Part shown: piece by piece, positions 275 through 59,907 of the stretch | Numbering within the stretch: position 1 is the stretch's first letter | How the letters are laid out: each line of letters starts with the position of its first letter | DNA from: a virus | Virus record (IMG/VR): IMGVR_UViG_3300031992_000092 | Span: 1-64,000 of that record | DNA: 64,000 nucleotides | Reading direction: 5' to 3' (one strand) | The notes under the pieces: model-generated | What the model was told of the DNA's origin: nothing | What the model saw: the letters and a program-made list of their open reading frames with translations, nothing else | Database searches by the model: none | Program-made: the position numbers and the translations under genes

Positions 275-303
275 ATTAATGTAAGATAAAATAGTGACGA
301 AAG

Positions 304-4532: not shown

Positions 4533-4736
4533 ATGATTACACTTTATAGTACAGGTTGTCCTCGTTGTAAAGTTTTAGAGCAAAAACTTCAACAAAAAAA
4601 TATTGATTTTAATATAGAATCAGATATGCAAACTATTATTGATATGGGTTTTAGAGCAGCTCCTATTCTTAAAGTAGATGAAAACTTTTATGATTTTGGA
4701 GGAGCTATTAAGTGGGTAAATTCATATGAAGATTAA
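4533..4736 (+). CDS. nrdH: NrdH-like glutaredoxin-like redoxin (CPRC active site)
   Basis: 67 aa. MITLYSTGCPRCKVLEQ has a CxxC thioredoxin-fold motif. RBS GGGAGGAAT. Lies immediately upstream of nrdD and overlaps its start. Confidence 0.7.
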   Translation: MITLYSTGCPRCKVLEQKLQQKNIDFNIESDMQTIIDMGFRAAPILKVDENFYDFGGAIKWVNSYED

Positions 4737-8442: not shown

Positions 8443-8854
8443 AATAAAATATGAACATGATGATGTCCCTCGATTAAATAAAATTGTTCAAGGAGATTGA
8501 ATTGATTTAACTTTAGATGAAGATATTCAATTAGATAAAGGGCAATCAGGACTATTTTCTTTAGGAGTGTGTATTCAATTACCAAAAGGATATGAAGCAA
8601 TTTTAGCTCCAAGAAGTTCAACATTTAAACGTTATCATTTACTTCAAACCAACTCAATTGGTGTTATTGATAATTCTTATTGTGGAAATAATGATATCTG
8701 GAAAGTTAGTTTTTATGCCACCGAAACTACTTTTGTTCCAAGAGGAACAAGAATTTGTCAATTTAGAATAATTAAAAATCAACCTGAAATTAATTTTATA
8801 GAAGTTTCATCCCTTAATAATCAAGATAGAAATGGTTTTGGTTCAACAGGATAA
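8432..8854 (+). CDS. dut: dUTP pyrophosphatase (dUTPase)
   Basis: With TGA read as Trp at 8496-8498 (GDWIDL) the ORF extends upstream to ATG 8432. Motifs ILAPRSS, GVIDNSYCG...IW and RNGFGSTG are trimeric dUTPase motifs. Confidence 0.75.
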
Positions 8855-9333
8855 TGATTTTATCTTTAGATCAAGCATTAGTCACAACAGGTTGAGCAAT
8901 TTTTGATGAAAATAAATTAATAGCTTATGACAGTTTTACTATAAATGGAAAAGATTCTATTGAAAAAAGATTAGGATTTATTTTTCAAAGATTAATAGAA
9001 TTATATAATAAATATGAGTTTGATTATTTAGTATTTGAAGATATTCAACAGCAACAAAATCCAAGTACATATAAAAAACTTGCATATGTTCAAGCGATTA
9101 TTTTACTTTGATGTTTTTATAATCAAATTAATTTTACAGTATTAAGTCCTTCTCAATGAAGAAAAATATTAGGTGGAAATTTTGGAAGAAAAAGAGAAGA
9201 ACAAAAACAAAAAGCTATTAATTTAGTAAAACAATATTATAATATAAATGTTGATTCAGATATTGCGGATGCAATATGTATTGGAAAAGCCTATTTAGAT
9301 AGTCATAAACAATTAGGATTCGGGGTGATTTAA
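8854..9333 (+). CDS. ruvC: RuvC-like Holliday junction resolvase (phage type)
   Basis: Needs three TGA=Trp codons. N-terminal MILSLDQALVTTGWAIFDEN is the RuvC catalytic Asp/Gly motif. The protein ends at ...SDIADAICIGKAY, the typical C-terminal catalytic Asp region. Not in the track because of the in-frame TGAs. Confidence 0.75.
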
Positions 9334-11031: not shown

Positions 11032-12591
11032 TTACCATTTATTATCATTTAAAGAGCATTGTAAGGCTTTAACAGATTCTCTACCAAAATATCCATCTAC
11101 ATCAATATCGTAACCTTTATTAACTAACCATTGCTGGAGAGCTCTTGAGGTCCCAGGGCCTCATTGACCATCAACTTCCGCACCAACTTTACTTTGAATA
11201 GCTTCAACTAATTGAGAACCAGTTCCGCTATCATATTCAACATTATACATTCCTCAATGGTAATCTTTATTTCCAAGCCATTGACCGCTAATAACACCAT
11301 CTTCATAAGTACCTAATGTGTGCTGTAAATCAATAATAGTATTTCATCCACCAATACCATCAATTTCAAGTTTTCCACCATCGCGATTATTTTTTGGATC
11401 AGTTGAAACATCTGGTGTGAAATTTCCACTATCAGAATTACTATAATGAGGTCTAATAACATAGGCTACGTTACCCATATTACGATATTTTTCTTGTACG
11501 GCATTACCAACATTACCTTCAATTGTTGGGAATCCAGAGCCATCAAAACTTCCTGTTGCAAATCCAATATGGTCAGTAGCTCCATCTCAATCCCAATTAA
11601 AGATAACAATGTCTCCATACTGTACATTATATTTATCTACAGCATAATTTTTTGCGCCATTATTTAGAGCTAAATCTGTATTATAAGTTGGGAAACCTTT
11701 AACTACAACTCCTGCTTGTTCTAAGCATCAACTTACAAACATGCAGCACCATCAAATTTCAACAGAAGGTCCAGCAAGCCAATCTTCATCTCACTTATCA
11801 GCCAATCAACGACCATATTTAGAACCTGGTTCAGGATCATTAGGAGCATAATATCCTAATTCACCATAAGCAACGTCAATAACACTTTTAGCTGTTCCAC
11901 TCATTTGTTTACTTTCTTCTTCTTTTTTTTCCTCTATTGGTTCATCAGTTTGAATAGTTTGTCCAGCAGCTATTCTTGCGGGATAGTCGATACAACACCA
12001 ATCGCAATCGTGATAACCACTAACATCATCAAATACTATATGACCATCAGATAATCTAATTCCGCCTTGCTGTCACATTCCAATATCTCCAGCTTCAGTT
12101 GGTCAAGAAGCTTTTCATCAAGCAATTCAATTAGCATAGTCACGAAGTTCATCTGCATACATATTGTTTAATCATGCATTTCCACCAGTATAAAGTCCTG
12201 CATAATATCCTCTATTACGGAGAGTATCGCAAAAAACTTTAATAACATCAGTTAAAGTACGTGCTGATAACTGGAATTGTCTTGGATCTTCAACATCTGT
12301 GTAACAAGGTAAATCAAATTTATGTCCATCAAGTAAATCTGCAAAGTGATTAGCATCTTTTCTTGAATTTTCTGTATCTGTAGTAACTGTATAATAATAT
12401 GCTCCAATATGAAGTCCAGCAGCTACAGCTTTTTTATAATTATTTTCAAATTGTCCGTCTTTATAACGTCCTAAATTTGTTTCATTTCCACCAGCTTTAA
12501 TAATAACGCCTCAAAGTCCTCTCTGACGTTTTCAAGCTGCTAAATCAATATCCCCATCTCAATGAGAGATATCAAGAACAAGTTCTTTCAT
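11032..12591 (-). CDS. endolysin: N-terminal GH25 muramidase plus C-terminal domain (519 aa)
   Basis: Table-4 translation from ATG (rc of 12589-12591, RBS AGAGGTG) gives MKELVLDISHWDGDIDLAAWKRQRGLWGVIIKAGGNETNL..., the GH25 (Cpl-1-like) lysozyme N-terminus. The ORF is continuous only when the several TGAs are read as Trp. It ends ...KALQCSLNDNKW*. Confidence 0.75.
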
Positions 12592-12612
12592 TTTCCGCAC
12601 CTCTTTTCTATA

Positions 12613-12650
12613 TAAAAAAAGAGTCCCATATTTCAGGGACTCTTTTTATT
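12613..12650. terminator. bidirectional terminator hairpin (AAAGAGTCCC / GGGACTCTTT) with flanking A- and T-runs
   Basis: 10-bp inverted repeat at 12618-12627 and 12636-12645. It lies between holin and endolysin. Confidence 0.5.
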
Positions 12651-12941
12651 TTATTCTTTTAGATGAGCAGGCTGCTTTTTTAATTCATGCATTAGTATGT
12701 CTGCTTGAAGAGCGGGTTGAGTAAAACTGTTATTCTTCCATCAAGCGATAATAGAAGCTACAACAACAGCAACACCTGAAGCAATTTCATAAATATTGTT
12801 TTCATCAATATCAATAGGAGTTCACCCAAGTAAAGCGCAAAAAGCATTAACTAATGCAATAAATAGAACAATGGTTCTAGCAATAGTCCCAGGTTCAATT
12901 GAAAGCAATCCGTCTAAATTAATTGTTTTTGCTTCAGCCAT
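12651..12941 (-). CDS. holin (96 aa, single strongly hydrophobic core)
   Basis: Table-4 translation MAEAKTINLDGLLSIEPGTIARTIVLFIALVNAFCALLGWTPIDIDENNIYEIASGVAVVVASIIAWWKNNSF.... It is small, has TM segments, and lies immediately upstream of the endolysin. Confidence 0.55.
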
Positions 12942-12967
12942 TTAAAACACCTTCTTTAATTAATTAA

Positions 12968-13768
12968 TTATTCTCCAGTTCCGCTTCCACCAGCGACGAG
13001 TGCATCAATCTCTGCATTAGTAGCAAATGTAATATCTGCATCTAAGACATATGGAGAAAGATCAACGAAGCCAGGAAGTACATCAAATTTATAAGCAGGA
13101 GACTGACCAGTTGTGTCAGTATCAACAACAACTACATTGGTTCCAGCAGGATAAGTCTTAGTTACTCCACTAGCATATTCAACGAAGTCACTAGTAATAG
13201 TAAAGGAGTCAGTAACATTATAAACGTTACCAAGAACACCAACAGCTAGAGTTGGTAGACTTGCAAATGCTACAGAACCAGCAGGCTTATAAACAGTAGC
13301 AATCTGAGCAGCTACAGTGTCATCAACATAAGTTTTAACAGCTGCGCCTGTTGGAAGTTTAGCATCATTAGCAAGTGTAGTCTCAACGTCTTTATAAGCA
13401 GCAGCGTCAAGACCATGAACGGCTACATCTGAACCATTAACAGCAACAGTACCATTTGTAGCACCTTCGGCAACTGTAACATTAACTTTCTTGGTTGTGC
13501 TATCAGGAGTTAAATCTGTAGCATTAACTTGGACACCAAGAACTGGAATTGTTACGTCAACCTTTTTGTTAGCATCAGGAGTTAAGTCAGTACCATTATA
13601 TTGAACACCAAGAATTGGAACTTCAACATCAACAGCACCATCAGCATCCTGTGTTAGAGCTGTACCATTACACTTAACAGTTTTTACTGCACCAGCAGGA
13701 GCAAATGTTTCTGTAGCTTTCTGCCATAAACGTTGAATACCAGCCCAATCAACGAGTTTCATCGCCAT
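12968..13768 (-). CDS. fibre/adhesin-like structural protein with tandem ~24-aa repeats; compositional outlier
   Basis: 266-aa ORF intact in the standard code (no TGA). Visibly more GC-rich than its neighbours. Repeats VDVEVPILGVQYNGTDLTPDANKK / VDVTIPVLGVQVNATDLTPDSTTKK. Contains AAVKTYVDDTVAAQI, which resembles the KxYVD motif seen in phage tail-fibre proteins. Confidence 0.5.
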   Translation of the reverse strand: MAMKLVDWAGIQRLWQKATETFAPAGAVKTVKCNGTALTQDADGAVDVEVPILGVQYNGTDLTPDANKKVDVTIPVLGVQVNATDLTPDSTTKKVNVTVAEGATNGTVAVNGSDVAVHGLDAAAYKDVETTLANDAKLPTGAAVKTYVDDTVAAQIATVYKPAGSVAFASLPTLAVGVLGNVYNVTDSFTITSDFVEYASGVTKTYPAGTNVVVVDTDTTGQSPAYKFDVLPGFVDLSPYVLDADITFATNAEIDALVAGGSGTGE

Positions 13769-13785
13769 ATAATCACCCTTTCTTT

Positions 13786-14418
13786 CTAATTACCTTGTAT
13801 AATTTCTTCTATTTCATCATCTGTAACAGCTCTAAATCCAAAGTCCTCTAATGTTTGATTCCCTGTAAGTTCAACTCCATTAATAGAAGGTTTGTTTGTA
13901 ACATAAAGATAATCTGTTACACCTTCGAGTTCAACTTCTTCTAATCATTTTGTAATATCTTCTACACTTTGATTCATAACTATTGCAGCTTGTGAAAACA
14001 AATTATAATCATCAGAAGCAATAAATTTATCTAAGTCTATTGGGTCTGCGGAAATAGTAACTTGAAAATCATCTGTTCCAATTAAACTATTATTATCAAC
14101 TTTTTCAATTTTACAAATAATATGTCCTTCTTGAATCATTTTTGATGGTCAAGCTATTTCTCAGACTGGATTAATTTTTAAAGTTTTATCTCCAACTTCA
14201 ATACAATTAAATACATTATAGCCTTGAATATCTAATTCTTGATGATGCCATTTTAAATAAATTTTAGTAGAAGAAGTAAAAACAGAAGCAGCTTCTTGAG
14301 AAAAAATTACTTTTAATTTTTTTCCATTAATATCATTGCCACTAAATATCATATCTTCTATTGGTTGATAAAAAGATTTTATTTCTAAAATACAAGAAGT
14401 TAATGATAACATATTCAC
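13786..14418 (-). CDS. hypothetical protein (210 aa)
   Basis: Track ORFs 14161..14418 and 13945..14139 are in one frame, joined through TGA=Trp. They continue to TAG at 13786-13788. Confidence 0.45.
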
Positions 14419-14495: not shown

Positions 14496-17400
14496 TTAAT
14501 TTTGTTCTGGAATATAGAAGTAACCTTTATCTGTATTATTATTAACAGAGCCATCTTTACGATAAGCAATATAAATAGTATGCGGGATTCCTTCCAAATT
14601 CTCAAATTTTGCTTCTTTATAATTCATATTAGAATTACCATAAGTATTATAATTATAATTACTAGTAGTAGGTTGAGCATCTATTTTCATAATTAAATAG
14701 TCATAATTGGATTCTCCATATGAACAATATTTAATGATAAATGTATCATATCCATCAATATTAATCATACAAGTATCAGTAGTATTATGTTGATTTGTAT
14801 GTTTACTACTATAATATACTGTATGACCATCTACTTGAGTTCCACTATTAGCTCATTCATCATTATTAAGGTCTATAATATATTCTTGTTGAATTAATAT
14901 TACTCTTAATATCTTTGTAGCAGTTATACTATTATTATAAATACTAGTAGCTGTAATAATTAAAGTATCTCCATCAGAAGCATTTACTAATTTAACTAAA
15001 CCATTAGTATCAATAATAGCGTTACCTTCAATAGACCAAGTTACTCCACGATATTGCGGGTCAACATCAATACTATCATCTGGGTCTATATAGACAGGAG
15101 TTAATTGAGCAACTCTATCATAAACATCTTGTTTATAACAATTGATAGTTTCAATATTGGAATCTAATCTTATAGATACTAATTCTTTATCAGAGCCATC
15201 TTTAAAAGCGCTTAAAACATTTTTTCATTGATAAGCTGCTTTATATGTTGGGAATAAGCTTAATGGAATATAAATAGAGGTTACACCAGTAGAAGAAAGA
15301 TATGTATTAGTATCTGAATTAAAGTTTTTAAATACTCCACGAGCATAAATTGTTCTAAGATTTGTCGCATATCTAAATATTTCTGATGTAGAATTAACTG
15401 CTGAAAAATCTCAACCAGAAATATCTATTGTATTTAATTTATCACAATAATAAAATAATCCATATAAATCTGTGACTGTTGAGAATGTTCATTTAGACAT
15501 ATCGAGTTCAGTAATTGCTCTATCATATCAAAACATTTGTCTAATAGTAGTAAGATATGGAGTATGCATTTCTCCAAAATGAATACTTGTTAAACTAGGA
15601 TTGTTTGCAAACATAGCTTGCATTGTAGTAACATTTGTTACATCCAATAGATCAAAGTCAAAAGTTTTAATTCTTGTTTCATTAAAAGCATGACTTAAAC
15701 TAGTAATTTGTGAGGTTTCACTATTAATAATATCAAAAGAGCCAATCTGATAACGACCACTTAAAGTAATATAAGTTCCACTAAAATTATTAAATGTAAT
15801 ATTTAATGTACCAGCGCTAATATCATTCATAGTAGAAATAATGGTACTAATTCTACCGCAATCACTACAATTAATAAATTCTGTATTGGTAATTTTACTA
15901 TCATAACGAAACATGTTAGATACATTTGCGGAAGATGGTATATGTGGAATAATAACACTCGTTAAATTTGAACAATTTGCCATTGAATATTGTAAATTAT
16001 TAATTTTATCAACAGATAATTTTGTAGCATCAAGAATTGTCATTTTACCTTCATAGAAAGCATAATTAAAATTACAGTCTGCTTGTTCTCGCATATTTCA
16101 TTTTGAAGTATCTAAAATAGTTAAATAAGGACACATATGGAAACAATATGTATAATTAGTTACATTTGAAAAATCCATATTAATATCTTTAAGATTATGA
16201 ATTCCAGTTCCCGCATAAGCATAATTTAATGAATTAGGTTTATTTCTTTCATGAATAATAATTTCTCCATTGTTATTTTCTACTCAATTAACCATATTAA
16301 TATTTTTAATTCTAATAGCACTTCTAATAAATTCATTAAAATTATTATTAATAGTACCTTCAACAATTAAAGTAATAAAACTATTACTATTATTAGCTCC
16401 ATTACAAATTCATCTAATTAAACTATTTCCACCTGTTCAACCATTACATTCAGAAAAATAAATATTTTGAAGAGCAGAACAACCTTTTAAACAATCAGTG
16501 GCATAGCCACTATCATAATCATAAAGTTGCTTAGCATTCCTAAATTCAATTGTGTCAAGAGTAATACAATTTTCAAACATATGAGTCATATGTAAATAAT
16601 AAGCTCGATTAGCAACTACTAAATTTGGAAATTCTATATAATCAATAGACGTACATTCTGCAAACATATAATCATAATAAATATCTGTTCCTTTATTAAT
16701 ATTCATATTATAATTTTCAGGGAAAATAATCTTTTCAAGTAAACCACATTGATAAAACATATATCTTGAATCTTGAATTTTAGTAAAATTAGAATAACCA
16801 ATATCTACAGTTACTAAATTAACACATCCAGAAAACATATATTGAGTATTATTTACATTTCCAACATTTCAAGTAGTCATATTTATTTCTGTAACAAATA
16901 CTTCCATATTATTAGCTATAGTTCCAGAATCTTCCATAAATTTAATTTTAGTTATGGCTCTACAATTTTGAAACATGCAAGACATATTAGTTATAGGAGA
17001 AGTGTCAGCATCATTTGTGGTTGTTGTTAATCTAAATCAATCAATATAATCTAATTCATAACAATTTTGGAATCAACCTTGCATACTAGTAATTCCAATA
17101 AATTTAGAATATTTTAAATTAATAGATTTTAAAGCTCAACATCCAGTAAATAAATATTGAGCACCAGAACTACTTAATTCAACAAAATTTACACTACTTA
17201 AAGTTAAATTTGTTAAAGAATGACAATTAATAAACATTCTGCTAATATTAGTAGCTCTACATGGATTAGTAAATAAATAATTAATATTTAAAGTTTCAAG
17301 AGCATAACAATTTCCAAACATATATTCTAGACTTCTACCACCAACTCATGGGCTAGAATTATTATTTTGTCCAACTCTTGTAAATGAAACATTGTGTAAG

Positions 17401-20400
17401 TCTAAAGATTTTAAAGCTCTACAATGATTAAACATACTTTGACAATACATTACATTAGAAAATAATCAGCCATTATCTCCTTGATGTGTATTAATTTCTT
17501 CAAGAGCATAACAATTTTGTAACATACAGGTTGTACTATAAGCGCCAATCATATTGAAATGTTGATTTAAAGTTTTTAAAGCATAACAATGTTGAAACAT
17601 GTATTGGAAATTGGTACATTTTTGAGAAATAAAACTATCAGGAAAAGTTAATTCTTCAAGAGCATGGCATCCTTCAAACATCCCGTCAACTCTTTGAAGA
17701 TTTGCTCCTCCAAAGGTTTCTGGAATTCTAATTGATTGAAGAGCATAACATCATTGAAACATTCTTTCTGCACTAGTATTATTTATCATTGTAAAAGTAT
17801 CTGGAAGATATAATTCTTCAAGAGACTCACAATAACAAAACATATACGTAGCATTATCTCCACTTCATAAAGAAGTATTAAAATTAGGAATCAAGAGATG
17901 CTGTAATGATTTACAATTATAAAACATTTGATAAAAATCAGAACATTTAATAGTATTAAAACTTGTTAAATCTAACTCTTGTAAAGATTGACAATCATAA
18001 AACATTTCATACATTGTAGTAACATTTTCTGTTGAAAAATTACTAAAATCTAAAGTTTCAAGTTTAGTACATGCATAAAACATTTCAGAAAAAGTAGTTA
18101 CTAAATCTGTATTTAATGGAGTTAAATCAAAAGTTACTAAAGAAGAACAATAACAAAACATATTAGCACAATTAGTTAAACTGTGTCAATATTCCATACC
18201 ACTAATATCTAAAGTAGTTAAATTAATACAATCATAAAATAAATTAGATACATTTTTAATACTTTGTCCTTGAGCCCCTCATGTAGACATATCAATAGTA
18301 GTACCTCTATATCCTCTAAATAAATTAGCAATACTAGTACAAGTATTAATATTTCACTCTTCTAGATGAAGATCAACACTACTACCACAATAAGTTCCGC
18401 CTATTGATTTTCCTGCTAAATAGAAAGTATTATCTCTATAAATAACTCTTTGTAATGCTGAGCATCCTCAAAATTGAGCCTGAATATTTTTAACATGTTC
18501 AGTCCAAAAACTAGAAAGATTAATAGTTCGAATAGTATTAGCATTTAAAAACATTACTGCTCAATTAATAGAAGTAGTTGTTTCTTGAATATTTCATTGA
18601 GACAAATCTACACTAGTTCCCTTATAGCCACTAAACATTGCTACAAAACTTGTTTGCTGTGAAACATCTCAATGACCAATATTTAAAGGAATTTTAATAT
18701 TATAAAACATTTGCCCAACTGCTGTATAATATGTATATCTCATACTTCCATTAGTACCAGTATCAATTCATCTTGTAGAATAGTTTTCATTACTTCAATA
18801 ATCAATTGAATTAGCCTTCATTATAAATGAATTTGTTTCAAAAGTTTTAAGTTTAGAACAATTATAAAACATAGCTTCAAAATTTACAACTTTAGAAGTA
18901 TTAAATGTTTGAATTTTTAAAGTAATTAAATTAGTACATTCAGCAAACATTTCTGCCATACTTGTTCCTTGAGAAGTATCTCAATTAGAAAATATTAATT
19001 CCGTACCTTTATAACCATAAAACATTCTAATAAAATATTTCATTAAAGAGGTATTAAAAAGAGTCAAATCATGAATTTGTCCTATACTTCCATTGAACAT
19101 GTCTCTAACATTTACACTAGAATGGAACTTTCATTCATTTGTTATATACAAATCCTGTAAATTAGAGGTTCCATAAAACATTTCTGACATATTGGTACAA
19201 AATTCAATATTAAAGTCTGAAAGAGTAATTGTAATTGCCTTACAGTTATAAAACATTTGTGACATATTAATACAAGATTCGGTATTAAAATCTAAAAGAG
19301 TAACTGTAGTTGCTTTACATTCTCTAAACATCTGCGACATATTGGTACAAACTTCTGTATTAAAATTTGAAAGTGCGATTGTAGTTAATACAACATTTGT
19401 ATTATAAAACATTTGATACATTGTTGTTACATGAGAAACATCTCAAGTAGAAATATTAATTTCTGGAAGAAAACATCCACCAAACATATAAGTCATATCT
19501 GTAACTGAAGAAGTATCCCAAGTATTAAATAAAATTCAAGGAGCATGTACATCTGCAAAAGTATTAATCATATTCTGTACAGAAGAAATATCTCAAGTAG
19601 ATAAATCTAATCCATTAGTAAAAGTAGACAGCCTAAACATAGCTCTGAAAGAAGTAATATTAGAAACATTTCAATTTGCAACGTTTATATTTGTAAAAGT
19701 TGAACGATACAACATTGCTCTTAAATTAGTAATATTACTAAAATCTAAATTTTCAGCTTCTAATGTTCCAATAGTAGAATCATAAAAGAAACTAAAATCA
19801 CTATCTCAACTAAGAATATTTGTTAAACTAGTAATATCTCAATCTGTAATATTAATTAAATTTGCAGTACATCCTCTAAAAATAAATTGCATATTAGTAC
19901 AATTACTCATATCTCAGGTTCTTAAATCTAATTCAAGACTAGATGTTCCCATTTCTCTAAACATACCACTAGCATTTAAAACTTCACTAGTATCAAGAAT
20001 ATCTAATCCTTCAATAGACTGCAAACCTTTTAATTTATAAAACATATTCATACTATTAGCATTTAAAATAATAGGTGCTGCAACTTCAAAAGTAATAGTA
20101 ATTGTTCCAGTATCATTATCTCAATTAGCTACTACTGGAGAACCTTGAGAACCAATAGCAATACCAGATTTTTGAATACCATTTTCAAATATTATATGTT
20201 TAATTTTAGTATCTTCAAAATTACCATCTGTAACATTACTTCCATTTGCCATACGTTTAATAGTATAAGAAAATTCACCACCAGAAATTAATCTAGAATT
20301 ATATTTTTCTGGAAGAAGCGGAAAATCATAATATGTTTCTACTTTAATAGGAATATCTTCATTTCAAACAGTATACATATTTTGAACACCAGTATACATA

Positions 20401-23400
20401 TCTTTAGGAAATTGCATTGGATATAAAACTATATTGTAATCTAAGTAAGTAGAAGAGACATAGAAAAACGCTCTATCCTCATTTGAATCAACACTACCAT
20501 CCTTACGATAAAGTAAAGTAATAGTATGCGGATTATCATCATAAATTTCATATACAACTGTAGTATATGTCGTACTTGGTTTTCCATAAGTATGATATTC
20601 ACAATTAGAAGTTGATAATCCAGAAGTTTGATCAAGTTTACTAACAATTAAATAATCATAATTTGATTCTCCATTAGAACGAACTCTAATAGAAAATCTT
20701 GAATAACCTTGTATAGTTAAATAACAATAAGCATTTCCATTAGCAATATGATAGTTAGAATTACTTTTATAAATTTGAGAACCATTTATAGCATTATCAC
20801 CATCTTCAATCCATTGGTCATTTAAATCAATAGATCAAGAAGCATCAGATAGGTGTTTAATAGAATATCCTTCTATTTCTGCATTTCTAGCAGTATCATA
20901 AAATTGTCCTATATCCATTTGCTGCATAGCTAAACAATTATATAAACCATTTTCTTTTTCAGTATAATTAAATAACGTTCTATGTTTGCGGAAATCGAGG
21001 TATGTCATACTTTCACAACCAGAAAAAATTTCTCGCATATCCCGCAAATAATTAGAACATAATAATACTATATTAGTTTCAATAGTTTTACAATTCATCA
21101 TCATTTGATAAGCTGAAACGACGGTATTAAAAATAATTTCAGGATAGCGCTCTTGTTTAATTTCTATTAAATTATAACAATTCTTAAACATTTTATCAGC
21201 ATTTTTAATATACATAAAAGGAAATACTTTAGTAACTAAATCATAAGTAGGAGCTGCACCTGTAGATTTTGTTCCTTTTGGTCAAATAATTTTTTCAAGT
21301 TCATAACAATTTTCAAACATTGATGACATATTACCAATATTTTCAGATGTTAAACCAAGATTTCCATTATTATTATATGGTAATCCGGTAGCTTGAGCTA
21401 AATTATGATAAGTTTGGAACATCCAAGTACTTAAATCAATTTCTTGTAATTTTCTACAATCTTTAAATATTCTAACAAATCAATATTTTTGACTATTACT
21501 AGTATTTTCAGAAGGAGAATATTCAGTTGTAGTACCTCTTCAATCACCAAATTTTAGATTAACTAAAACTAAATTTTCAAGATTATAACAACCATCAAAA
21601 GTTCCTTCAAATTCTTGAGTTGTATTATAATTAGTAATATCTATAGGTCTATCATTTGGAAATTTAATACTTGTAATTTTATGACAGTTATAGAAAGTTT
21701 CTTTCAATGAAGTTAATTGAATATCATAACCGCCATATTGATGCCAACTCCTATTACCTCCAGTAATTCAATTATAACCAGCATTTGGATTTGTTTTAGG
21801 AATAAATTTAGAAAAATCCATTTCCATTTCTAAATTTTTACAATTATAGAAAGTTTGACTTAAATTTCATAAAACCATATTTTGAGAACCATTACTTGAT
21901 TTATCAAATTGACCATTAGTAGTAATACTCTTTAAGTTAGTAATATCAATTAATGATTCACAATTATAAAACATTTGTTTAAATTGATTATTAGAATGTC
22001 TATCAACATAATAAGTTCAACCACCACTTGGGGTATAATATCTCCTAAATGCTAAATTAATTTTTTCAGGTAGGATAATATGTTTAACATTTATACATTC
22101 TTTAAACATTCCTTCATAACAAGGACCATTAAAAACATTTGAATATTTTAAATTAATTTCTTCTAAAGATTTACAATTATAAAATAAATAAGAATAATCG
22201 TATAAATTTGTAAAAAAGAAATATTTTAAATCTAAACTTTGTAAAGATTCACAATTATAAAAACATCTACCTACTAATTCAGTTTTTCTTCAATAAGCAC
22301 TAAAACCAAGAGATTGAGCATACTGTCCATGTAAATCTGTAATTGTAATTAAGGATTTACAATTATAAAAAATTCTATCAAAATTACAATATAAATAACA
22401 ATTAGACATATCAAGTGCGGGAAGAGATTCACAATTTTCAAACATACTAGCAGCTTTTACAAGACGTCCATGAAATTCCATTTTAACAAAATCTAAATTA
22501 ATTAAAGATTTACAATTACAGAACATATAAGAAACATCTGTGACACCTCTTGTTCTTCATCTATCAAAAATAATAGATACTAAAGATTCACAGTTTAAAA
22601 ACATTTGGTTTGTAGAATATAATCACGGACTTTCAACATCTCCCATATCCAAAGATTGGAGATTAATACAGTCTTTAAACATTTTCTTAATATCTCTAGC
22701 CATATGCCAATTAAAATTAGATAAATCTAATTGAGTTGCCAAACAACCCTCAAATAAATTATTAAAATAAATATTTTCTTTATTAAATTGTGCGGTCAAT
22801 TGCTCATAAATCACATCTGGCAACCAAGCAAAAATATAATCTTTCTTCCTTGGGAATATAATTGAAGAAATATCAATTTCTCTTAAATTATTACATCCAG
22901 TAAACATATATGACATATCTTGAACATTAATTGTATTAAAATTAGATAAATCTGCAAAAAGTAAGGAAGCACAATTATAAAACATATAAGACATATCTAT
23001 AACATTATTTGTATCAAAATCTTTAAAATCAATTAAACTTAAAGATTCACAATTACTAAATAAATGTGTCATATCTGTTACTTTAGAAGTATCTATATTT
23101 TCAGGAAGTATAAGTTCTTTAAGATTTTTACATCCATTGAACATATATTCCATATCTATAACGTTAGAAAAATTAAAATGAGATAAATCAATATAATCAA
23201 ATAATTCACAATTATTAAACATATAACTTGTATCAGTTAATGTTTGTAATTCTAAATTAGATAAATCTACAGTAATAAGCGAAAAACATCCGTCAAACAA
23301 ATGAGAAATATTTGTAATATTTTCCCATTGAATCTTATTGAAATTGTTTATGCGTCGTAATTCCCGCATATCATAAAAAGTATATTCTGCATTATCTCTA

Positions 23401-26270
23401 ATTACAAAATTTTCAGCTCTGGTTTGAATAATAATTTTTTTAGTGTCACTATTATAATAAATGTATGGCCCAACATATTCTATATCATTAATAGTAGTTA
23501 TATATTGAGTACCATGTGGACTAACAATTCTTGTTCTAAAGTCTATACTTTTAATTTCTTGTAAAGAAACACCTTTAGTTGCAGAATAATTTTCTATCAT
23601 ATTCCGCAATGCCATCCCTGAATAAAATATATTATTATCAAAGCCATATGTTCTTTCTAGCAGCTCTTGGGTTACAGCTCTTTCTCTAATATATTTTCCA
23701 GGCCCATCAATTAAACCAGTAACATTAATATTAAAATTAGGAATAATACTTTCTTTAGTAGTATCATATTTTGATAAAATAACTTCGTTATCATTGTTAA
23801 GAGGAAGCTTATATCAAGGTTCATCCGTTGTTAATTGTTCATAACCATCTGTCTTTTCATAACTTTTATTAATTATAACAACATTTGCTGTTGGGATATA
23901 ATTTTTTAAACATTTTCTTAAAGTAGAATTATAAGATTTTGTTGCTCTATTAATAGTTTTCATTCTTCCTCAATCAACATCTGAGAAATTAATAGAACGT
24001 AAATCTGAACAACCTTTAAACATAGTATCTAAACCATAGATATAATATCAATCATAATATTTCTCATCATATCCTCTATGTGTTTTTCTATAATTAGTTA
24101 TATCTTCAAGATATATTTCATCACAAGGATCTTGAAAAGGAATTAATTCTTCTCTTGTAACAACAGGATTCATTTTAAAATTAGTAATATCAGTTAATCT
24201 CTCATCATCATTAAACATATATGCATAATTACAACAATAACTAGTATTAATTTTTTCAAAAGAAAAATCTTCAAGATAAATCATTCCAGAGAACATACCA
24301 GAACCATCTGCTGGAATATAAAATTCATTTTCTGGTGTTGCTACAATTAATGTTTTAGTATCATGGTCATAATCTCATGTTAAACTATTAGAATAAACTT
24401 TTTTACTATATTCATCTACTCTAACAACCAAACTATTAGGAAGCGGGAATAATACATTCGTTCTTCATTCTATATGTTTTATTACTTTTCCAGCAAATTG
24501 TTTACTAAAATTTTGACCTAAGAAATTATGCATAGAAGGATATTCATAATAAGGCTCTGGTTTGACTATACAATCTTCTCTAATATATCTACCTATTTGA
24601 TGAAGATTTAATTGATAAGTTCTAATACCAGTATTTTGTTCTATCATATAATATGGTAAAGCTAATCCAATATCTTTTAAATATCCATTTCTATTTTGGT
24701 CAAGACCTAATAAACTAGAAGCAGCATCTTTATTCATTCCTGCATCAACTGCTAATTTAAATAAATCTTGCATATAAGCTTGTACGTATTTGTCTTGAAT
24801 ATAATCACTATATGGAAGATTTACTGCTGGAGTATATTGACTATTCATATTAGTAAACATACCCTCTTGTACCATATTACCAGTAGTTAAATCCATTACT
24901 TCTTGAGTAACTACTTCCGTATATGACATTCTTCAATCAATACGAAGTCCAGCTTCTACACTATTTAATAAATCATATCCTGGCACTCCACTAATATTAT
25001 ATCCCATAAAGGCACTACTAGAAGTCATTGTATTAACTTCTGTATAAGTAGTAATACTAGGTTTAATTCCTTCAACTGTTTGAAAATCTTGTCGTGGACT
25101 ATAAGCATCATAATGTGCAATTTGTCATCCATTTACACTTAACATAGTTCTAGAACCTGTTAAAATTTCTTGTAAATTTCAACAATTATGAAAAGGAGAA
25201 TTTACATGCAATGTTTCTTTACCAGAATAGAAGAAATTAATTCAATTAGTTCAATCAATTTTCTTTAATTGGTAACATTCAGAAAACATTCCTGAAATAT
25301 TATTAATTGAAAAAACTGGACTATCAAAAGTAAATTCTTCAAGAGAAATACAAAAATGAAACATAAAACTTACATCTTTAAGAGATGGAACTTTTCAAAA
25401 TAAATTTCTAGGATTTGTTTTTAAACTATAACAATGAGAAAACATGTTTTTCATTGAAACCAAATTTGGAGCAAATATAGGTTCAATATTAACAGTAGTT
25501 AAATTAGGACAATATGCAAATGTTTCTTGCATATATGTAACTTTACTGATATCAATACCCTGAAGATTTGCTTCTACGAGATTTGGACATTCAGAAAACA
25601 TTTGAGTCATATTACTAGAACGTAATACTTTATCTCCATAAAATCTAAAATTAACAAATCCACATTGAGAAAACATTCCAATCATTTCACACTCATGATA
25701 AAAAGTTGGAAGTTTAACCTCAACTAAACAAGAACAATTTTTAAACATTCAATTTAAAATTCTAACATTGGAAGCGTCTCAAGAGGTCAAGTCAATTGTA
25801 TTAATACTTAAACAACCTTGAAATCAACCCTGAAAACTTTTAACCAATGAAGTATCTAAATTACCTATATTAAAGATAAGTCATAATTCACTCATACCAG
25901 AAAACATATTGGTCATATCTTCTGGAACTACAACTTTTCCATTAAATACAATATTTTTAATTTCACTATTATAAGCAGACCATGGATTAGTAAGATATTC
26001 TTCTGATAGGTAGGTAACTTTATCAGGATCACCAATTACTAATGTCCCATGGTCTGTAATAGCCCAAGGACAATCACCATTATATCCAGAATAAAGAATT
26101 TCTCCACCTCGAATATATTTTTCAAGGTCAGACATTTCTTTTCCTGGAAGGTCATCAATAGCAGAAGAAAATTCGTAAGGCATATAGGTTTCATCTCGCC
26201 CATTCTTCTCACGAATAGCATCTGCAATATCCGTTAAAACAGATTTTTTAATAAATACTTCTTCTGCCAT
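14496..26270 (-). CDS. giant receptor-binding/adhesin protein with DUF285/BspA-like leucine-rich repeats (about 3.9 k codons if a single gene)
   Basis: All 15 track ORF pieces between 26270 and 14496 are in the same frame. Junctions checked at 19421, 21215, 22526 and 20400-20520 are TGA codons that fit the repeat (W-x-VS-x-VT-x-M-x-x-MF). The repeat MFxxCxxLxxLDLSNFNTxxVTxMSxMF recurs dozens of times. The N-terminus MAEEVFIKKSVLTDIADAIREKNG is shared with the two upstream receptor-binding genes. In-frame TAA/TAG between the checked points is not excluded. Confidence 0.45.
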
Positions 26271-26282
26271 TTTATCTCCTTT

Positions 26283-29200
26283 TTAATTTGGGTAAATTAC
26301 TCTATAAGTATCTGCTACATTTGCGGGAATATCGTATGTAATTTCACCAGTTGTTTGACTTTCATATCTAATATCAGGACTGGCCGCACTAGCTCTTTTA
26401 TTAATACTAAATTCCCTATTAGCATAAAAATACATTTCTACATTATCTCCCATAATAATTTTATCTAATAAATATCCACCATCTTTACCACTACTAGCAG
26501 ATAAAAAATAAGTTGTTGTGGGAGCGAAACCTTGATTTAATTCAATTTCTAATCCAGATAAATCAAGAGTTTTAATACATTCACATCCTGTTAAAGCATA
26601 ACTAGCATTAACTGTAATAGTAGGTCTATAAGAACCTTGATAAACTTCAACAGAATCTTTTAATTTAAGAGGTAATAATTTAAAATAATTTTCTTCTCCA
26701 TTTGGACCAACTTGGTCTAATCCTAATCTTCTACAATTATAAAACATTTGTTCCATATTATTTAATTCTAATGGCTCCATATTTTGCGGGAAATCAACCC
26801 TTCTAAGATTAATACAGTTAGCAAACATATAAGCCATATTTTTAATAAGAGTAGGATTCAATTCTCAAGTAGAAATATCTACACTATATAAACTAGAACA
26901 ATATCTAAACATTTGAGCACAAGTAGTTAATGCTCCTACTGCTCATTGCGGGAAAGCAAGATTTTCTAAACTTGAACAATTTAAAAAAGCTCCTTGTAAG
27001 TTAATAAAAACAAAAGATGAAGATGTTTCAGGTTGATTAAAAATATGTAAATTAGTACAACCAGAAAACATTTCTTGTCCAATAAATGCTTGTCTAGGAG
27101 CTTGATTAAAAAATGTAATCTCATTTAACATTGTACATTTTTCAAGAATATTTCTAATATTCGTACAACTATATAGATTTAATGGCCGCAAATCAATTTC
27201 TTCAAGATAAGTACATCCTGAAAACATATAAGACATATTAACCACATTCTTTGTATTAAAAGTAGATAAATCAATTTGAGGCAATGTTTTACAATTCTGA
27301 AACATATAACTCATATCAGTGACCCGCACAGTAGTAATATCATTAAATTCTATTTCAATTAATCCTGTAAATGATGCAAATAACTTTGCACTATTGGGAG
27401 CAAAGAAAATTAATCTATTTGGAGTAAATACACTAAGTTCTCCACTTTCTATATCAAATGCAGCATAAGCTCCTGCATTATTATAATAATCTCCTACAGC
27501 TACATAGAAATCTAAATCAAATAAATCTTCGTCCATATTAGCATCTGTAGCATAAAAAATAATTTTTCTTACTTGACTATCTACTGTAGCAGAAGTAGTT
27601 TTAGTATTGCTCATATCATCATTAATAAAGTTTTTAATTCTTTTATTAAAGTTCTCTCCATTAGTTAAACTACCACAACCATAATATACGTCTCCACCAT
27701 CTGGAACTATCGTACCTATAATATAAATATCCTCTGCTGTTATAACTTCTTCAAGACTTGCAGAATACATATTAACTGAGAATTTAATAGATTTTTCATT
27801 TTGAAAATAAGCAATATCATAACCTTGTGGAATAACCAATGTTCTAATACTACCACAATTTGTTAACATATCAGTAGCATTAATTGAGCTATTTGGTAAA
27901 CCAGATGTTGAACTACCATTAAGAATTAAATTACTAAAATCAACTTCTTTTAATCTATAACAATTTTGTAAAAATCCTGTAAAATTAGTTACACTATATG
28001 TACTAAAAGGTAAAACAAATTCTGTAAATTGAACACAATTATTAAACATATTTGACATATTTTTTACTCTAGAAGTTGTTTCAAAAGAATCAAAGAATGT
28101 CATATTCTCTCATTTTAAACTAGTACATCCTTGAAACATACTAGCCATATTTGTAACATTATCCATATCAAAATTAAATAAATCTATTCCAGTTAAATTA
28201 CTACAATTTTGGAACATACCACTCATATTTGTTACATTTGAAGTATTCCAATAGGTGAGATTTAATTGATTAGAACCTTTTCAATTTGCAAAAAAACTAG
28301 CTAAAGAAGTGCGGGCAGAGACATCTCAATAAGTTGTATCTATTTCCGCAGGACAATTTCTTCAAAAATTGCCAAATGGAACATCTTTAGTAATAACTCA
28401 TCCAGCACCAGTTTCTACTTTTTCTAGAGAAGTACATCCATCAAAAAATGCTTCTAAAGAAATTGTTACACCTGATAAGTTTAATTTTGATAAATTTATA
28501 TTTTTTAAAGAAGAACAATTTGCAAAAACAAATCGAGCAAAACATAAAACAGAAGTTGTTTCTCAATTACTGCAATCAAGTTCTTCTAATTTTTTACAAT
28601 TATAAAAAGCATAATTTAATACAGATAATTTTTTAAGATTAGAAAAATTTTGGTATATATGAATTAAATTTTGACATTCATTAAAAGTATAGTGAAAAGT
28701 TGTTAGATTTCTTCCATCTCCAATTGAAGTTAAATCTACTTCAACTAATAAAGAACAATTATTAAACATTGATTGAAGAGATTCTACTGATTGCATATTA
28801 GATGGAAACTCAATAGCTCTTAATTGAGAACAAGAATTAAAAGCTGAATCAAAATATTTAACATTAGAAAAATCATTTTGAGAAAAATCTATTGCTGTTA
28901 AATTTGTACAATTTCTAAATAAACCTCTCATATCTATTACATTAGAAGTATTAATATTTTCAAAACCTAAAACTAATCAAAGAGAATCTAGTCCTCCAAA
29001 TAAACCCATAATAGAAGTTTGTACTTCTATTGGTTCATCAATAATAATTAACCTAATATATTGTCTATAATTATATCAATAAGACCAATATAAAGTTTCT
29101 GTAATATCTTTCTTTTGAGCCACATTTCAACGACTATAATTAGAACCACCATTAATTCAAATATTACTAGTATTTGGTTCAGGTAATTCTCCACCATGAA

Positions 29201-29843
29201 TAAAAAGAACACCTTTTCTAGAAATTTCTCATCTACATGTGCCAATAGTACCAGAATATAAAGGTTCAGTTTCTTTAATAAAAGATGATAAAAATACATC
29301 TGTATCAATTAAATCTATTGCGGGAGCCATCTCAGAAGGAGTATAAGTATCTTCAATTCCTTCTAATTTATATCTAATAGCATTTGCAATATCAAATAAG
29401 TCTTGCTCTTTTACAAGAACAAGACTTTCAGGTTTACTATTTTCAACTACTGTATAAGCATAAAAATTTTGATTAGTTGTTATATCAGTAGTATAATCAA
29501 AAACTAAAGTATGCGCTCCTTGCGGGACTTCAATAGTTCCCTCTTGTAAACTTGAAATATTACCATTTCCAGCTTTATAAGAAATAATCTTTCCATAAAC
29601 ATTAAGAAAAGCTATTCCTCCTAAAGTAGAAGAATTTTGGAAACCATAATATAATGTTTTTCCAACTTGAGTAGTAATATCTGCAAAATAATAATTTCAT
29701 AAAGAAGAATTTTGAGTGGTACCAGCAGCATAATTAGTACCACTTCATTCTCCAGATTTAACGAGGTAAATAGCTCCAGAGACTATAGGAGCATCCTTTA
29801 AAATATTTATGTGTTTTGCATAAGAATCTCCGCTACCAGCCAT
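26283..29843 (-). CDS. receptor-binding protein 2, DUF285/BspA-like LRR repeats (~1186 aa)
   Basis: Start ATG (rc 29841-43) after AAAGGAGG RBS. All track pieces are in one frame. N-terminal ...LFDIANAIRYKLEG...LYSGTIGTC is shared with the other receptor-binding genes. C-terminus ...NVADTYRVIYPN*. Confidence 0.55.
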
Positions 29844-29853
29844 TTAACCTCCT

Positions 29854-32800
29854 TTAATTATATTGAATTGTATAAGTATCAGCTATATTTGGTGGAATAG
29901 CATTAAACTCTTCATTATTAGTATTAACATAAGTAATTAATGATGTGCTTGGCTCTCTAGCTGTAAAGTTCTTATTACCAACAAAATAAGCACCAATTAA
30001 ATTACCAGTAATAATTGTATCAAGAGCATATCCACCTTGAGCACCAGTTTCAGCAGTTAAGAAATCTGTTGTATCTGGTAATGCATTCGTGTTATTTCTA
30101 TAAAGACCCATCTTAGAGAATTTATAAATATATTCTCTACCATCTGAAACTTCAGCCAAATAAATAATACAATATACGGTAGTACGATTACCACTGTTAA
30201 AATTAACAAGATATTCATAAGATTGTTCTGAAGCCATATTATTAAAATTAACACTACTAACAATAGAATCTGAAATACCACCTTGATAATTAGATGCACT
30301 TCCCGCAATATAATATCTAGCATTTCCATTATATCCACTAGGAGTATTAAAAGCTAATGAAAAAGTATAATTTGTATTAGCAATAACAGAGAGTGGTATA
30401 ACAATTTTTTCATATCCGCCACGTCCTGTTAACTTCATGGTATTTATATCATTAACATTATCATACTCATTATTAAAATTAGTATTTGCATAATTATCAA
30501 TATTATAACGATTTCAATTATTAATATTCTTTTGATTTGCAGTTAATAAATTAGTATTATCTAATGTTTCAGTAGAAATAATATTTAATTTACTTAAGTC
30601 TAATTCTTTAATTCCTTTACAACCAGCAAGAACACCTTTAGCATTAATTCTTGTAGTTGAATTACCAGAAATAACATTTTGTAGTAGGAATCCTGGTAAT
30701 GTAAATGCACTTGGAATAAAACTGTATTCTTCATTTACTAATGTTCTGGTAGTCCCAAGTTTCTCACAATTTTGGAACATATAAGAAATATCAGTAGGAA
30801 TTAAAGTAGGCATATCAATTGGGAATTTAATAGAATAAAGATTTCTGCAATTTTGGAACAATCTTGGTAATTTCTTTAATACATCATTATCAAATTCTCA
30901 ATCTTCAATATCTATTGTTTCAAGATTAGTACAATCAGCAAAAATATAAGATAATGAACTTAATCCTGTAACATTTCAATTATTTAAATCTAAGCTTGTT
31001 AATGAACTGCATTGATAAAATGCTCCATCTAAATTAGAAAAATTAAATAAACCATTTGTTGCTGGTTGATTAAAAGTAGATAAACTTGTACATCCAACAA
31101 ATAATTCTTTAGCATTCAAAGGATTTTGTCCAACTTGATTAAAGAAAGTTAATGTTTCAAGTTGATTATCATTCATAAACATTGTTTCAATATTCGCAAG
31201 AGCATTTGTTTCAAAATAAGTTAAATCAATACTCTTTAAGGATACACAATTATTAAAACAATTCTTAAATGATTGATTCTTAGCTGTATTAAATAAAGTA
31301 AAATCAAATGATTCCATTGAACGACATTCTTGGAAAGCACTTTCAAAAGTAGTAACTGAATAAGTGTTAATATAGGCAAAGTTAATTTGTTCCAATGCCC
31401 GCATTCCTCTAAATAAGCTTTCACAATTCTTATTAAATAAAATAAATCGTTCATTTGTTACTATTGTCATAGTAGCTGTTTCTTCATCTCACTTAGCATA
31501 AGCTCCAGCTCTATTATAGTAACATCCAATCCCATACCAACTACTATCATTTTCAAAGAATTCTTCATTTTGATCTCCAGTAGCAAGTTGGAAATTAATA
31601 ATTTTAATATTAGAATCCATTTGACTATAGCTTGTAGAACTATAAGCGATACCAGAAGCGAGATATTTAAGATAACCATTAACTTCTCTACCAGTAGAAA
31701 GAGCTCCACAACCATAATATGTTTTTAATCCAGTATAAATACCTCAATCCATATCATAAATTTGTTCTGGTAAAATGTCTATACTAGCATTAGCTTCATA
31801 CATATAAATTGGGAAGCATGGTTGATATCAAGTATAAATATCTGTTAAAGTATATAAATTAGTTTCTACTTTAACTGGTATAAATAAATTTGAATCATAA
31901 GAATTACCAACATATAATTCTCTTAAATTTGAACAATTCTTCAACATATTTTGAGCGTTAATAGAATGAGCTTTTGCAGTTCCATCGTCATTATCTGCTC
32001 CATGTAATATTCAAGTTGTTCAATCAATACTTTTTATTTGATAACAACCTTGTAACATTTTTTGATAATTAGTTACATGATAAGTACTAAAAGGAAAATG
32101 AAACTCGTTAAATAAAATACAATTTTCAAACATTGATTCAACATTAGTAACATTTCTTGTACTATCAAAATCATAAAAGAAAGTAATATCTTCAAGTTTT
32201 AAATTTTTACAATTATAAAACATATAAGATAAATCTGTACATTTAACAGGCTCAAAACTAAAAATACTAACACCTGTTAAATTAGTACAATTTCTAAATA
32301 ACGACTTCATATTTAAAGCATTTGAAGTATCTCAAAGAGTAAAATCTAATATTTGATTACCTTTCCAATCTTGGAAAAATGCTTCAAAACTTTGTAATGC
32401 TGAAACATCTCATTGTCTTGTATTTAAATAAGCAGCACAATTAGCAAACATTTGTTGAACATTTGCATTAGCATTAAATACTCAACCATTATTTGTTTTA
32501 ATTTCTCCAAGAGCAGTACAACCAGAAAAAATTTGATTTAATGTAGTAGCTCCTGAAATATCAAAACCAGATAAATCTAAAACAGTTAAACAAACACAAT
32601 TTTGAAATGTTTGTTGTAAATTTGTTAAAGCATTGGTAGTAATTCATTTAGAACAATCAAGATTTGATAATTTTGTACAATTTCTAAAAGCATATCTTAA
32701 ATTTTGTAATTTAGATAATCTTTTAAATCTAGTAGTAATACTTCCAAGTGCGGGACATCCATCAAAAGTACATTCCATATTAACAATATTTCTTCCTTCA

Positions 32801-33507
32801 TCCAAAAAAGAAATATCAATTTTATCTAATAATACACAGGCTGCAAAAGCATATTGTAAATTCTGAACATCATATCCACAATGATAATCAACATAATTAA
32901 TATCTGGAAACTTAATTTCCATTATTTGTGAGCAACCATTAAAGATATAAGACATATCTATAATATTTGTAAAATCATTTACAGAAAAATCAATTCCCGC
33001 AAGTCCTTTACAATTTTGAAACATAAAACTAATATTGCTAGTTTTAGTTAAATTTAAATAGTTCATACTATTTATTAATCAAAGTTTATCAAGTCCCGCA
33101 AAGAAATAAGACATATCTGCTCCTGCAATAACAGGACCTTCAAAACTTACTAATTTAATAAAACTTCTATAATCATACCAAGGAGAGTTTGTTTTTCCAG
33201 TATCCCGCACAAAATCTTTTCCATTTTCACATTTCCCTCGACTTATATCAGGCAGGACTCCCGCATATAAAAACAAAACTCCCTTAGTAGAAATTTCTCA
33301 AGAACAAGTTCCAAAAGTACCAGAATATAAAGGCGTTTTATCATGAAGAAAAGAGGTGACGAAAGTATTAGTCTGAATTGAACGAATAGCGTCAGCCATT
33401 TCTCCAACTTTATAATTTTTAGAATAATCTCCTAATTTATTTCTAATAGCATTACCCATATCTGTTAGATATTGTTTGCTAATAATCACCCTTTTCTCTT
33501 CACTCAT
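29854..33507 (-). CDS. receptor-binding protein 1, DUF285/BspA-like LRR repeats (~1217 aa)
   Basis: Start overlaps the tail-fibre stop (TAATG). All 7 track pieces are in one frame. N-terminus MSEEKRVIISKQYLTDMGNAIRNKLGD...LYSGTFGTCSW. C-terminus ...NIADTYTIQYN*. Confidence 0.55.
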
Positions 33508-56100: not shown

Positions 56101-56214
56101 CAAAGTTGTTGTAACTTGAGTCAAAGATTTCTGTAATTGTTCAATACCCTTTAAATCAGCAGAAGTTTTTAACTGATATTCAATTGTATTTGAATACTTA
56201 CTCAATGTTCTCAC
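47179..56214 (-). CDS. tail tape-measure protein (about 3,011 codons)
   Basis: Ten track ORF pieces from 56214 down to 47179 are all in the same frame (junction at 53500 is TGA, with no stop nearby). Long coiled-coil stretches. A hydrophobic/Gly-rich segment (LGFGASLGAILPIAAAIVAGIAVLVAAIKA, around 53500-53763) is typical of tape-measure proteins. Lies between tail-tube-side genes and baseplate genes. Start codon uncertain (GTG at 56214). Confidence 0.65.
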
Positions 56215-56302
56215 CTTCTTCTATATAAAGGTGCTCATTGACTAAGGTAATTCCTTTTATATAAAACAAAATGAGAACCTCCTTTGTCTCCTATAGTTTA
56301 GC

Positions 56303-59788: not shown

Positions 59789-59907
59789 CTTAAGTATCAC
59801 CTATTCCTTTCTTTTAATCTCGGTAATTTTTTACAATGCCATTGTTTAATCACCATTCACTAAAGGAATAGCGATTCTCTATAATCAAGATTCCAACAGA
59901 ATCAAGA

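Follow-up and report, generated by a model that had tools for sequence, protein, structure and literature searches.

We analysed a 64,000-nucleotide stretch of viral DNA, positions 1 to 64,000 of IMG/VR record IMGVR_UViG_3300031992_000092 (the window; 29% G+C). Its minus strand carries a giant gene that runs in one frame from position 26270 to 14496 and comprises 3,924 codons followed by a TAA stop (14496-14498). Read with TGA as tryptophan, this gene is predicted to encode a tail or adhesion protein of 3,924 amino acids (aa) built of DUF285/BspA-type leucine-rich repeats (LRRs). Two copies of a domain that we call X (X1 and X2) lie within the protein and at its C-terminus. The gene and the parts of its product are listed from the start codon onward.

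14496..26270, minus strand: giant coding sequence, 3,924 codons plus TAA with TGA = Trp; the open reading frame (ORF) is intact in IMGVR_UViG_3300028591_004246
26136..26270, minus strand: N-terminal motif of ~45 aa (MAEEVFIKKSVLTDIADAIREK...), one copy per gene by regular expression and BLASTP; matches the N-terminus of phrog_29123
25173..25919, minus strand: LRR block A, aa 118-366, from a repeat hidden Markov model (HMM) and Pfam DUF285
24249..25172, minus strand: non-repeat region, aa 367-674 (308 aa), no family match; its sole IMG/VR relative belongs to the same phage lineage
aa 675-757, minus strand: second LRR block, from the repeat HMM
21006..23327, minus strand: LRR block C, aa 982-1755, from the repeat HMM and Pfam
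20457..20852, minus strand: X1, the internal copy of the predicted jelly-roll domain, aa 1807-1938
19995..20456, minus strand: linker and array cap after X1, aa 1939-2092; open frame without stop, Shine-Dalgarno sequence or start
15357..19994, minus strand: LRR block D, the longest array, aa 2093-3638, from the repeat HMM; DUF285 E = 1.3e-95 over aa 1997-2996
14898..15356, minus strand: C-terminal array cap and a weak Ig-like (aBig_2) segment, aa 3639-3791; aBig_2 E = 0.009, under the Pfam cut-off
14499..14897, minus strand: X2, the C-terminal copy of the predicted jelly-roll domain, aa 3792-3924, from sequence comparison

Reading frame and genetic code

We translated the reverse complement of 14496-26270 with table 4 and listed all TAA and TAG codons. 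Apart from the terminal TAA, frame 0 is free of TAA and TAG, and TGA occurs in it 62 times. The two alternative frames contain 223 and 447 TAA or TAG codons. Base composition predicts about 270 of them over 3,924 codons, and the probability of finding none is about 1e-121. A sequence-only reading of this DNA had proposed a single ORF of about 3.9 thousand codons, and this holds at 3,924 codons with TGA as sense. That reading counted fifteen ORF pieces, which are the long ones only: under table 11, the 62 TGA codons cut the frame into 63 pieces, 13-17 of which reach 80-100 aa or longer.

The gene starts at an ATG at 26270, with AAAGGAG ahead of it and the TAA of the upstream gene 12 nucleotides away. 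We searched the full 11.8 kb and found a strong Shine-Dalgarno sequence with an in-frame start at this position only. True gene boundaries in the locus consist of a TAA, 10-12 nucleotides with AGGAG(G), and an ATG, or of an overlapping TAATG. No TAA or TAG, Shine-Dalgarno sequence or start was found near X1, and none of the Met codons examined downstream of X1 has a Shine-Dalgarno site. An in-frame TAA or TAG followed by a ribosome-binding site and a start near 20400 would divide the region into two ordinary genes, and this arrangement is absent. Rather, the frame continues past X1 into another repeat array, as had been suggested. TGA cannot terminate translation after X1 because 25 TGA codons precede it; the first one downstream lies 31 codons past X1. 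Since there is no stop, Shine-Dalgarno sequence or start near X1, 14496-26270 is a single gene and not two.

TGA is read as tryptophan in the giant gene, to judge from the codons that it replaces. Four codons swap TGA and TGG between this gene and that of a 97.7%-identical contig. The tryptophan of the repeat motif W-[DN]-x-S is encoded by TGA at 14 or more positions and by TGG at others. The tryptophan near the start of X1 is TGG, and the aligned residue in X2 is TGA. We also considered code 25, in which TGA codes for glycine, and rejected it on this TGA/TGG evidence.

The contig used in this comparison, IMGVR_UViG_3300028591_004246, comes from a separate assembly and contains an intact ORF of 3,923 aa. 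We compared 3,466 aligned codons and found 91 synonymous and 63 non-synonymous codon differences together with a single 1-codon indel, a pattern that would be expected of purifying selection on the reading frame. We take the giant gene to be real because an independent contig keeps the frame open and synonymous differences outnumber non-synonymous ones. Searching IMG/VR for orthologues with the unique region aa 447-601 returned only this same contig.

The differences between the two genomes cluster in two LRR segments (~21470-22070 and 16670-17270, corresponding to aa 1400-1600 and 3000-3200), which carry 12 and 13 non-synonymous changes per 200 aa compared with 0-6 elsewhere. Recombination or diversifying selection may be concentrated in these segments. 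The second contig ends 14 nucleotides upstream of the giant ATG, at the border with the upstream paralogue. This break probably reflects paralogous or variable receptor-binding genes that differ among strains.

Protein architecture and the X domain

DUF285 (PF03382) matches in all four quarters of the protein with 76-316 bits, compared with a gathering cut-off of 25, and the BspA-type LRR_5 family (PF13306) matches with 68 bits. A repeat HMM trained on the giant protein identified about 79 LRR units in four blocks. X1 and the linker that follows it lie in a 337-aa non-repeat stretch between LRR blocks. The sequence LTDIADAIREK, which is part of the N-terminal motif (L..IADAIR.K), occurs once in the giant protein and once in each of two upstream genes. 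Bacterial surface members of the family carry an export signal or lipobox; by inspection, the N-terminus of the giant protein (MAEEVFIKKSVLTDIADAIREKNG) has no hydrophobic segment. The missing signal peptide is consistent with a phage protein that is released by lysis.

X1 and X2 are 41% identical over 133 aa (BLASTP E = 6e-27) and form the only diagonal that links the two halves of the protein in a self dot-plot. The C-terminal domain thus recurs internally, as the sequence-only reading had noticed, but it spans about 130 aa and not about 70. X has no match by sequence in Pfam, PHROG or PDB, and searching 50,697 deposited phage genomes with X2 by tblastn gave no match. A k-mer-indexed protein search with X2 alone returned nothing; the family emerged in an exhaustive profile search. 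We compared an X1+X2 profile with 1.84 billion cluster representatives (50%-identity clusters) and recovered 1,019 proteins at E <= 1e-3, including 429 at E <= 1e-10. All of the matches returned with source information are unnamed metagenomic proteins. Conserved motifs in the family include GESNYDY and YRKDGS...DDRGY.

AlphaFold models of X depended on the depth of the input: two sequences gave an uninformative pLDDT of 50, and a 37-sequence alignment gave a pLDDT of 92. X is predicted to fold as a jelly roll (beta-sandwich) of the CUB/MAM/CBM type. Identity to the structural matches does not exceed 16% for solved structures or 24% for predicted viral structures. X-domain relatives structurally resemble domains of tail proteins.

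X occurs in several genomic contexts. One copy is a stand-alone 169-aa gene in a tail module, beside Phage_tail_C and Peptidase_S74 genes. X also forms the C-terminus of ~450-aa proteins in viral contigs of 17-47 kb (including our loci L003-L006), and it is present in gut genome bins assigned to Christensenella, Lachnospiraceae, Alistipes, Anaerovoracaceae, Bacilli and Bacteroidaceae. The domains found together with X are LRR_5, DUF285, Big_2, BACON and WG repeats.

We took a census of architectures in the 150 best X-family representatives, which contain 179 X copies. The extreme C-terminus holds 98 of these copies, internal positions hold 61 and N-terminal positions 11, with 9 copies standing alone; 21 of the 150 representatives have at least two copies. 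Among layouts with LRR blocks, LRRs followed by a terminal X are commonest (55/150). X-LRR-X was found in four proteins, and the LRR-X-LRR-X layout of the giant protein in none. A recurrent metagenomic class begins with an MD(I/A)RRR N-terminus followed directly by X and then by LRRs (P0002, P0019, P0027, P0031, P0058, P0082, P0119 and P0125). Four MD(I/A)RRR proteins carry a second X at the C-terminus, which makes X-LRR-X a distinct architecture. We considered parsing X1 as the N-terminal X of such a cassette, as seen in P0002, P0019, P0027 and P0031, and found no specific support for it, as X1 and X2 are both nearer to C-terminal copies.

Neighbouring genes and host

The minus-strand genes follow the order structural protein, tape measure, 1,848-aa protein, three tail proteins, 679-aa fibre-like protein, three DUF285 genes (the giant gene and two upstream paralogues), two small genes, and endolysin. 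The assigned neighbours are listed here.

58613-59800, minus strand: virion structural protein, phrog_2729, with a weaker match to the major-head-protein family phrog_10
47179-56220, minus strand: tape measure, 3,013 aa, 17 in-frame TGA codons
33507-35546, minus strand: fibre-like protein, 679 aa; best match phrog_9625, weak Phage_head_fibr match
29854..33507, minus strand: second upstream paralogue, 1,217 aa; DUF285, shared N-terminal motif at aa 14
26283..29843, minus strand: upstream paralogue, 1,186 aa; DUF285/LRR_5 arrays, shared motif at aa 149
11032-12645, minus strand: endolysin with GH25, CHAP and peptidoglycan-binding domains

With TGA open, the minus-strand block 11032-63786 gives long ORFs of 3,929, 3,014, 1,849, 1,238 and 1,187 codons, among others. 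Per-gene counts place the recoding in late genes and leave early genes compatible with the standard code: the endolysin and the tape measure each contain 17 in-frame TGA codons, and plus-strand DnaE and NrdD contain none. A RuvC-like resolvase gene (8830-9333, plus strand) has three in-frame TGA codons, one of them inside a TTGW motif. Its neighbours DnaE (298-4125) and NrdD (4726-6687) have none. Because this plus-strand gene uses TGA, the code boundary does not lie exactly at the strand switch near 11 kb. GC skew over the window (1-64000) is positive to about 10 kb and negative beyond, flipping with the coding strand.

Both upstream DUF285 paralogues align with the giant protein over their N-terminal parts. 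Their last ~75 aa are shared (40% identity) and show no relation to X. Near its C-terminus (aa ~985-1140), the 1,217-aa paralogue has an additional stretch of about 150 aa, rich in Asn and Tyr, that is missing from the 1,186-aa paralogue. The 679-aa gene and the first DUF285 paralogue overlap by stop and start in the sequence TAATG. The 679-aa protein contains many repeats of the type LP.A...LGG(V/I)..D, and its gene uses neither TGA nor TGG.

A gene for a 266-aa protein (12968-13789, minus strand; phrog_38190, unknown function) contains zero TGA codons. G+C content around it is 36% (12001-14000) compared with 25-27% over the adjoining giant gene. The protein's C-terminal portion is 42-50% identical to proteins from dozens of phage contigs of 30-60 kb with 54-57% G+C, and the gene looks like a horizontally acquired module. 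We tried the 266-aa protein as a handle for finding orthologous loci and dropped it, as its 73 loci came nearly all from unrelated high-GC phages.

Relatives of the structural protein are found in large siphoviruses of Enterococcus, Lactococcus, Bacillus, Brevibacillus and Clostridium, and in the TAG-recoded gut phage phAss-1. The phage is of the siphovirus type, and its 3,013-aa tape measure implies a very long non-contractile tail. Based on the endolysin domains and these relatives, the host possesses a cell wall; it is probably a Firmicute-type anaerobe of the gut or rumen that uses the standard code. We judged a wall-less, natively code-4 Mycoplasma-like host unlikely, given the GH25, CHAP and peptidoglycan-binding domains of the endolysin.

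Proposed function, history and relation to known systems

We consider it probable that 14496-26270 is one real late gene in which TGA codes for tryptophan and that its product is a modular fibre or adhesin for host adhesion. The gene lies in the tail-tip module, between the tape measure and the lysis genes. Because it stands between tail genes and the endolysin, we read its product as a host-adhesion protein, and we infer that it is a tail-tip adhesin. In the mechanism that we propose, the N-terminal motif would be the virion-attachment segment by which the protein docks at the tail tip. The LRR solenoids would act as spacers that extend the protein and might also offer binding surfaces, and X1 and X2 would be heads that bind host cell-wall glycans. 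The protein would thereby let the phage adsorb to a gut or rumen host that has peptidoglycan (Gram-positive type). Its 62 TGA codons may allow its synthesis only once the phage has turned the cell to TGA read-through. The LRR-X-LRR-X layout would most likely have arisen long ago, when two diverged LRR-X cassettes of a paralogue-rich locus were joined in frame, and not by a recent duplication. Since LRRs followed by a C-terminal X are the commonest layout in the census, the giant protein looks like two such units in series.

Several points weigh against this interpretation. An ARAGORN scan of the 64-kb window found no tRNA, and hence no suppressor tRNA(UCA) there; phage suppressor tRNAs were detected in just 35% of code-4 genomes (Borges et al., 10.1101/2021.08.26.457843). 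The phage DUF285 families phrog_9915, 17273, 22899 and 29123 are all annotated as "unknown function", and the DUF285 genes of Butyrivibrio phage Bo-Finn sit outside the tail module. Most of the census proteins come from standard-code gene calls, and some may be fragments as a result. That two LRR-then-X cassettes were joined is a plausible history that only the architecture suggests. Our searches turned up no relative in which the two halves are separate genes, and a search of JGI metagenome contigs for the X1-linker junction came back empty.

A more ambitious proposal, which we offer tentatively and would not favour at present, is that X is an unrecognised, widespread family of receptor- or carbohydrate-binding heads in phages of gut anaerobes. 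The giant protein would then be a bivalent super-adhesin with two diverged heads, X1 in mid-fibre and X2 distal, on about 79 LRRs. One gene would thus provide two receptor specificities, with synthesis gated by 62 recoded stops.

The gene could also be real and single, and its product something other than a receptor-binding virion protein: a decoration, a factor for mucus adherence, or a protein that is released by lysis and acts on other cells. We give this alternative a small chance. Bacterial DUF285/BspA proteins are surface adhesins and the phage members have no known function, the Bo-Finn genes lie away from tail genes, and the fibre-like protein (33507-35546) or other tail-tip gene products could perform receptor binding. 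However, the giant gene and its two paralogues lie between tail and lysis genes with tight operon spacing, the protein has no signal peptide, and relatives of X are found in tail modules and resemble tail-protein domains.

The sequence-only reading had suggested that an entire receptor-binding gene was duplicated in tandem and that the stop and start between the copies were lost. Two X copies, a layout like two LRR-X units, and three tandem paralogues already present at the locus would fit a recent event of this kind, which we nonetheless regard as improbable. X1 and X2 share only 41% identity, and neither is the other's nearest relative: 52 foreign family members score above X2 when compared with X1, and 8 score above X1 when compared with X2, placing the two copies at mutual ranks of 53rd and 9th. 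Apart from the X1/X2 diagonal, the halves are not colinear. A second copy of the N-terminal motif L..IADAIR.K was not found in the giant protein, and the 137 aa that follow X1 are no more similar to gene-start regions than shuffled sequence is (z <= 0.7), which leaves no vestige of a second start. DNA repeats within the gene are at most 126 nucleotides long and 60-84% identical, with two short tandem arrays only. Moreover, X is internal in about one third of its occurrences elsewhere, so an internal X alone is no evidence of a lost stop. We therefore prefer the older joining of diverged cassettes over this duplication.

Two adjacent ordinary genes, the first ending at X1 near 20457 through a missed stop or a TGA stop at W1969, are very unlikely. 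X is mostly found at the extreme C-terminus (98 of 179 copies, with LRRs followed by a terminal X in 55 of 150 representatives), and a TGA does occur 31 codons past X1. Yet the frame contains no TAA or TAG and, unlike the genuine boundaries of the locus, no internal Shine-Dalgarno sequence with a start; TGA must already be sense for translation to reach X1, and the second genome keeps the same frame. An assembly artefact, in which collapsed, expanded or chimerically joined repeats produced an ORF that exists in no phage, is equally remote: the protein is repetitive (about 79 units of 25-26 aa) and the related contig stops 14 nucleotides before the ATG, showing that assemblers break nearby, but the nucleotide repeats are short and diverged, making collapse or chimerism very unlikely, the structure recurs in a contig from a separate assembly, which differs at 2.3% of bases and has one 1-codon indel across the ORF, and a chimera would not be expected to leave 11.8 kb without TAA or TAG.

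The giant gene is an unusually large example of known things and not a new kind of system. Late-gene TGA recoding, phage DUF285/BspA arrays, very long tape measures, and jelly-roll binding modules on siphophage tails are already known. The 3,924-aa combination, the LRR-X-LRR-X layout, and the view of X as a large family without a domain-library entry are new. Current understanding of recoding or phage adsorption is unchanged by this gene, which would serve as a clear example of receptor-binding loci growing through cassette joining. Standard-code gene calling breaks it into 63 pieces, and databases are probably full of such fragments; the size and architecture of adhesins from recoded phages are therefore under-recorded. 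X is common in gut metagenomes, can be folded with confidence and occurs in phage tail modules. It lacks a family entry, and a definition of the domain would improve how the host range of many uncultured phages is annotated.

We compared the locus with known recoded phages. The Agate lineage consists of TGA-recoded (code 4) phages of about 127 kb, and Borges et al. (bioRxiv 10.1101/2021.08.26.457843) described recoded late genes alongside non-recoded replication genes as a pattern of gut phages with code 4 or code 15. As in code-4 gut and rumen phages such as Agate, TGA is concentrated here in structural and lysis genes, DnaE and NrdD conform to the standard code, the host evidently has peptidoglycan, and GC skew flips at the strand flip. 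Unlike Agate-type phages, the window lacks a suppressor tRNA in its 64 kb. The likeness is one of recoding pattern; no terminase was identified in the window. A giant LRR gene is not described in the Agate paper (10.1101/2021.08.26.457843).

DUF285 (PF03382) and BspA-type LRR_5 (PF13306) proteins share the repeat family of the giant protein, with E values down to 1e-95, and the start of phrog_29123 matches its N-terminal motif. Long arrays are known in phage proteins too: ORF 200 of the Vibrio jumbo phage pir03 is a 19-kb DUF285 gene (PMC7765460). Bacterial DUF285/BspA members are secreted lipoproteins or surface proteins, whereas the giant protein has no signal peptide. It further differs from other DUF285 proteins in that its arrays are joined with two X domains and its gene lies in a tail-lysis module. 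X resembles the carbohydrate-binding modules on tails of Gram-positive siphophages, and CUB, MAM and CBM jelly rolls in general, by predicted fold only, at the low identities given above.

The phAss-1 or "Phassvirus" group comprises siphovirus-type gut phages of 133-136 kb with tape measures of 3,149-3,209 aa (PMC10607447). The structural protein encoded at 58613-59800 is 48.5% identical to that of this group, and both systems have a tape measure of about 3,000-3,200 aa, a DNA polymerase III alpha subunit and a class III ribonucleotide reductase. In contrast to the locus described here, the phAss-1 group reads TAG as glutamine (code 15), and its fibre carries pectate-lyase-like domains in place of DUF285 LRRs or X. 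The receptor-binding gene of the phAss-1 group is fused in two genomes (1,070 aa) and split in a third (538 + 429 aa; PMC10607447), a difference that parallels the cassette joining proposed for the giant gene.

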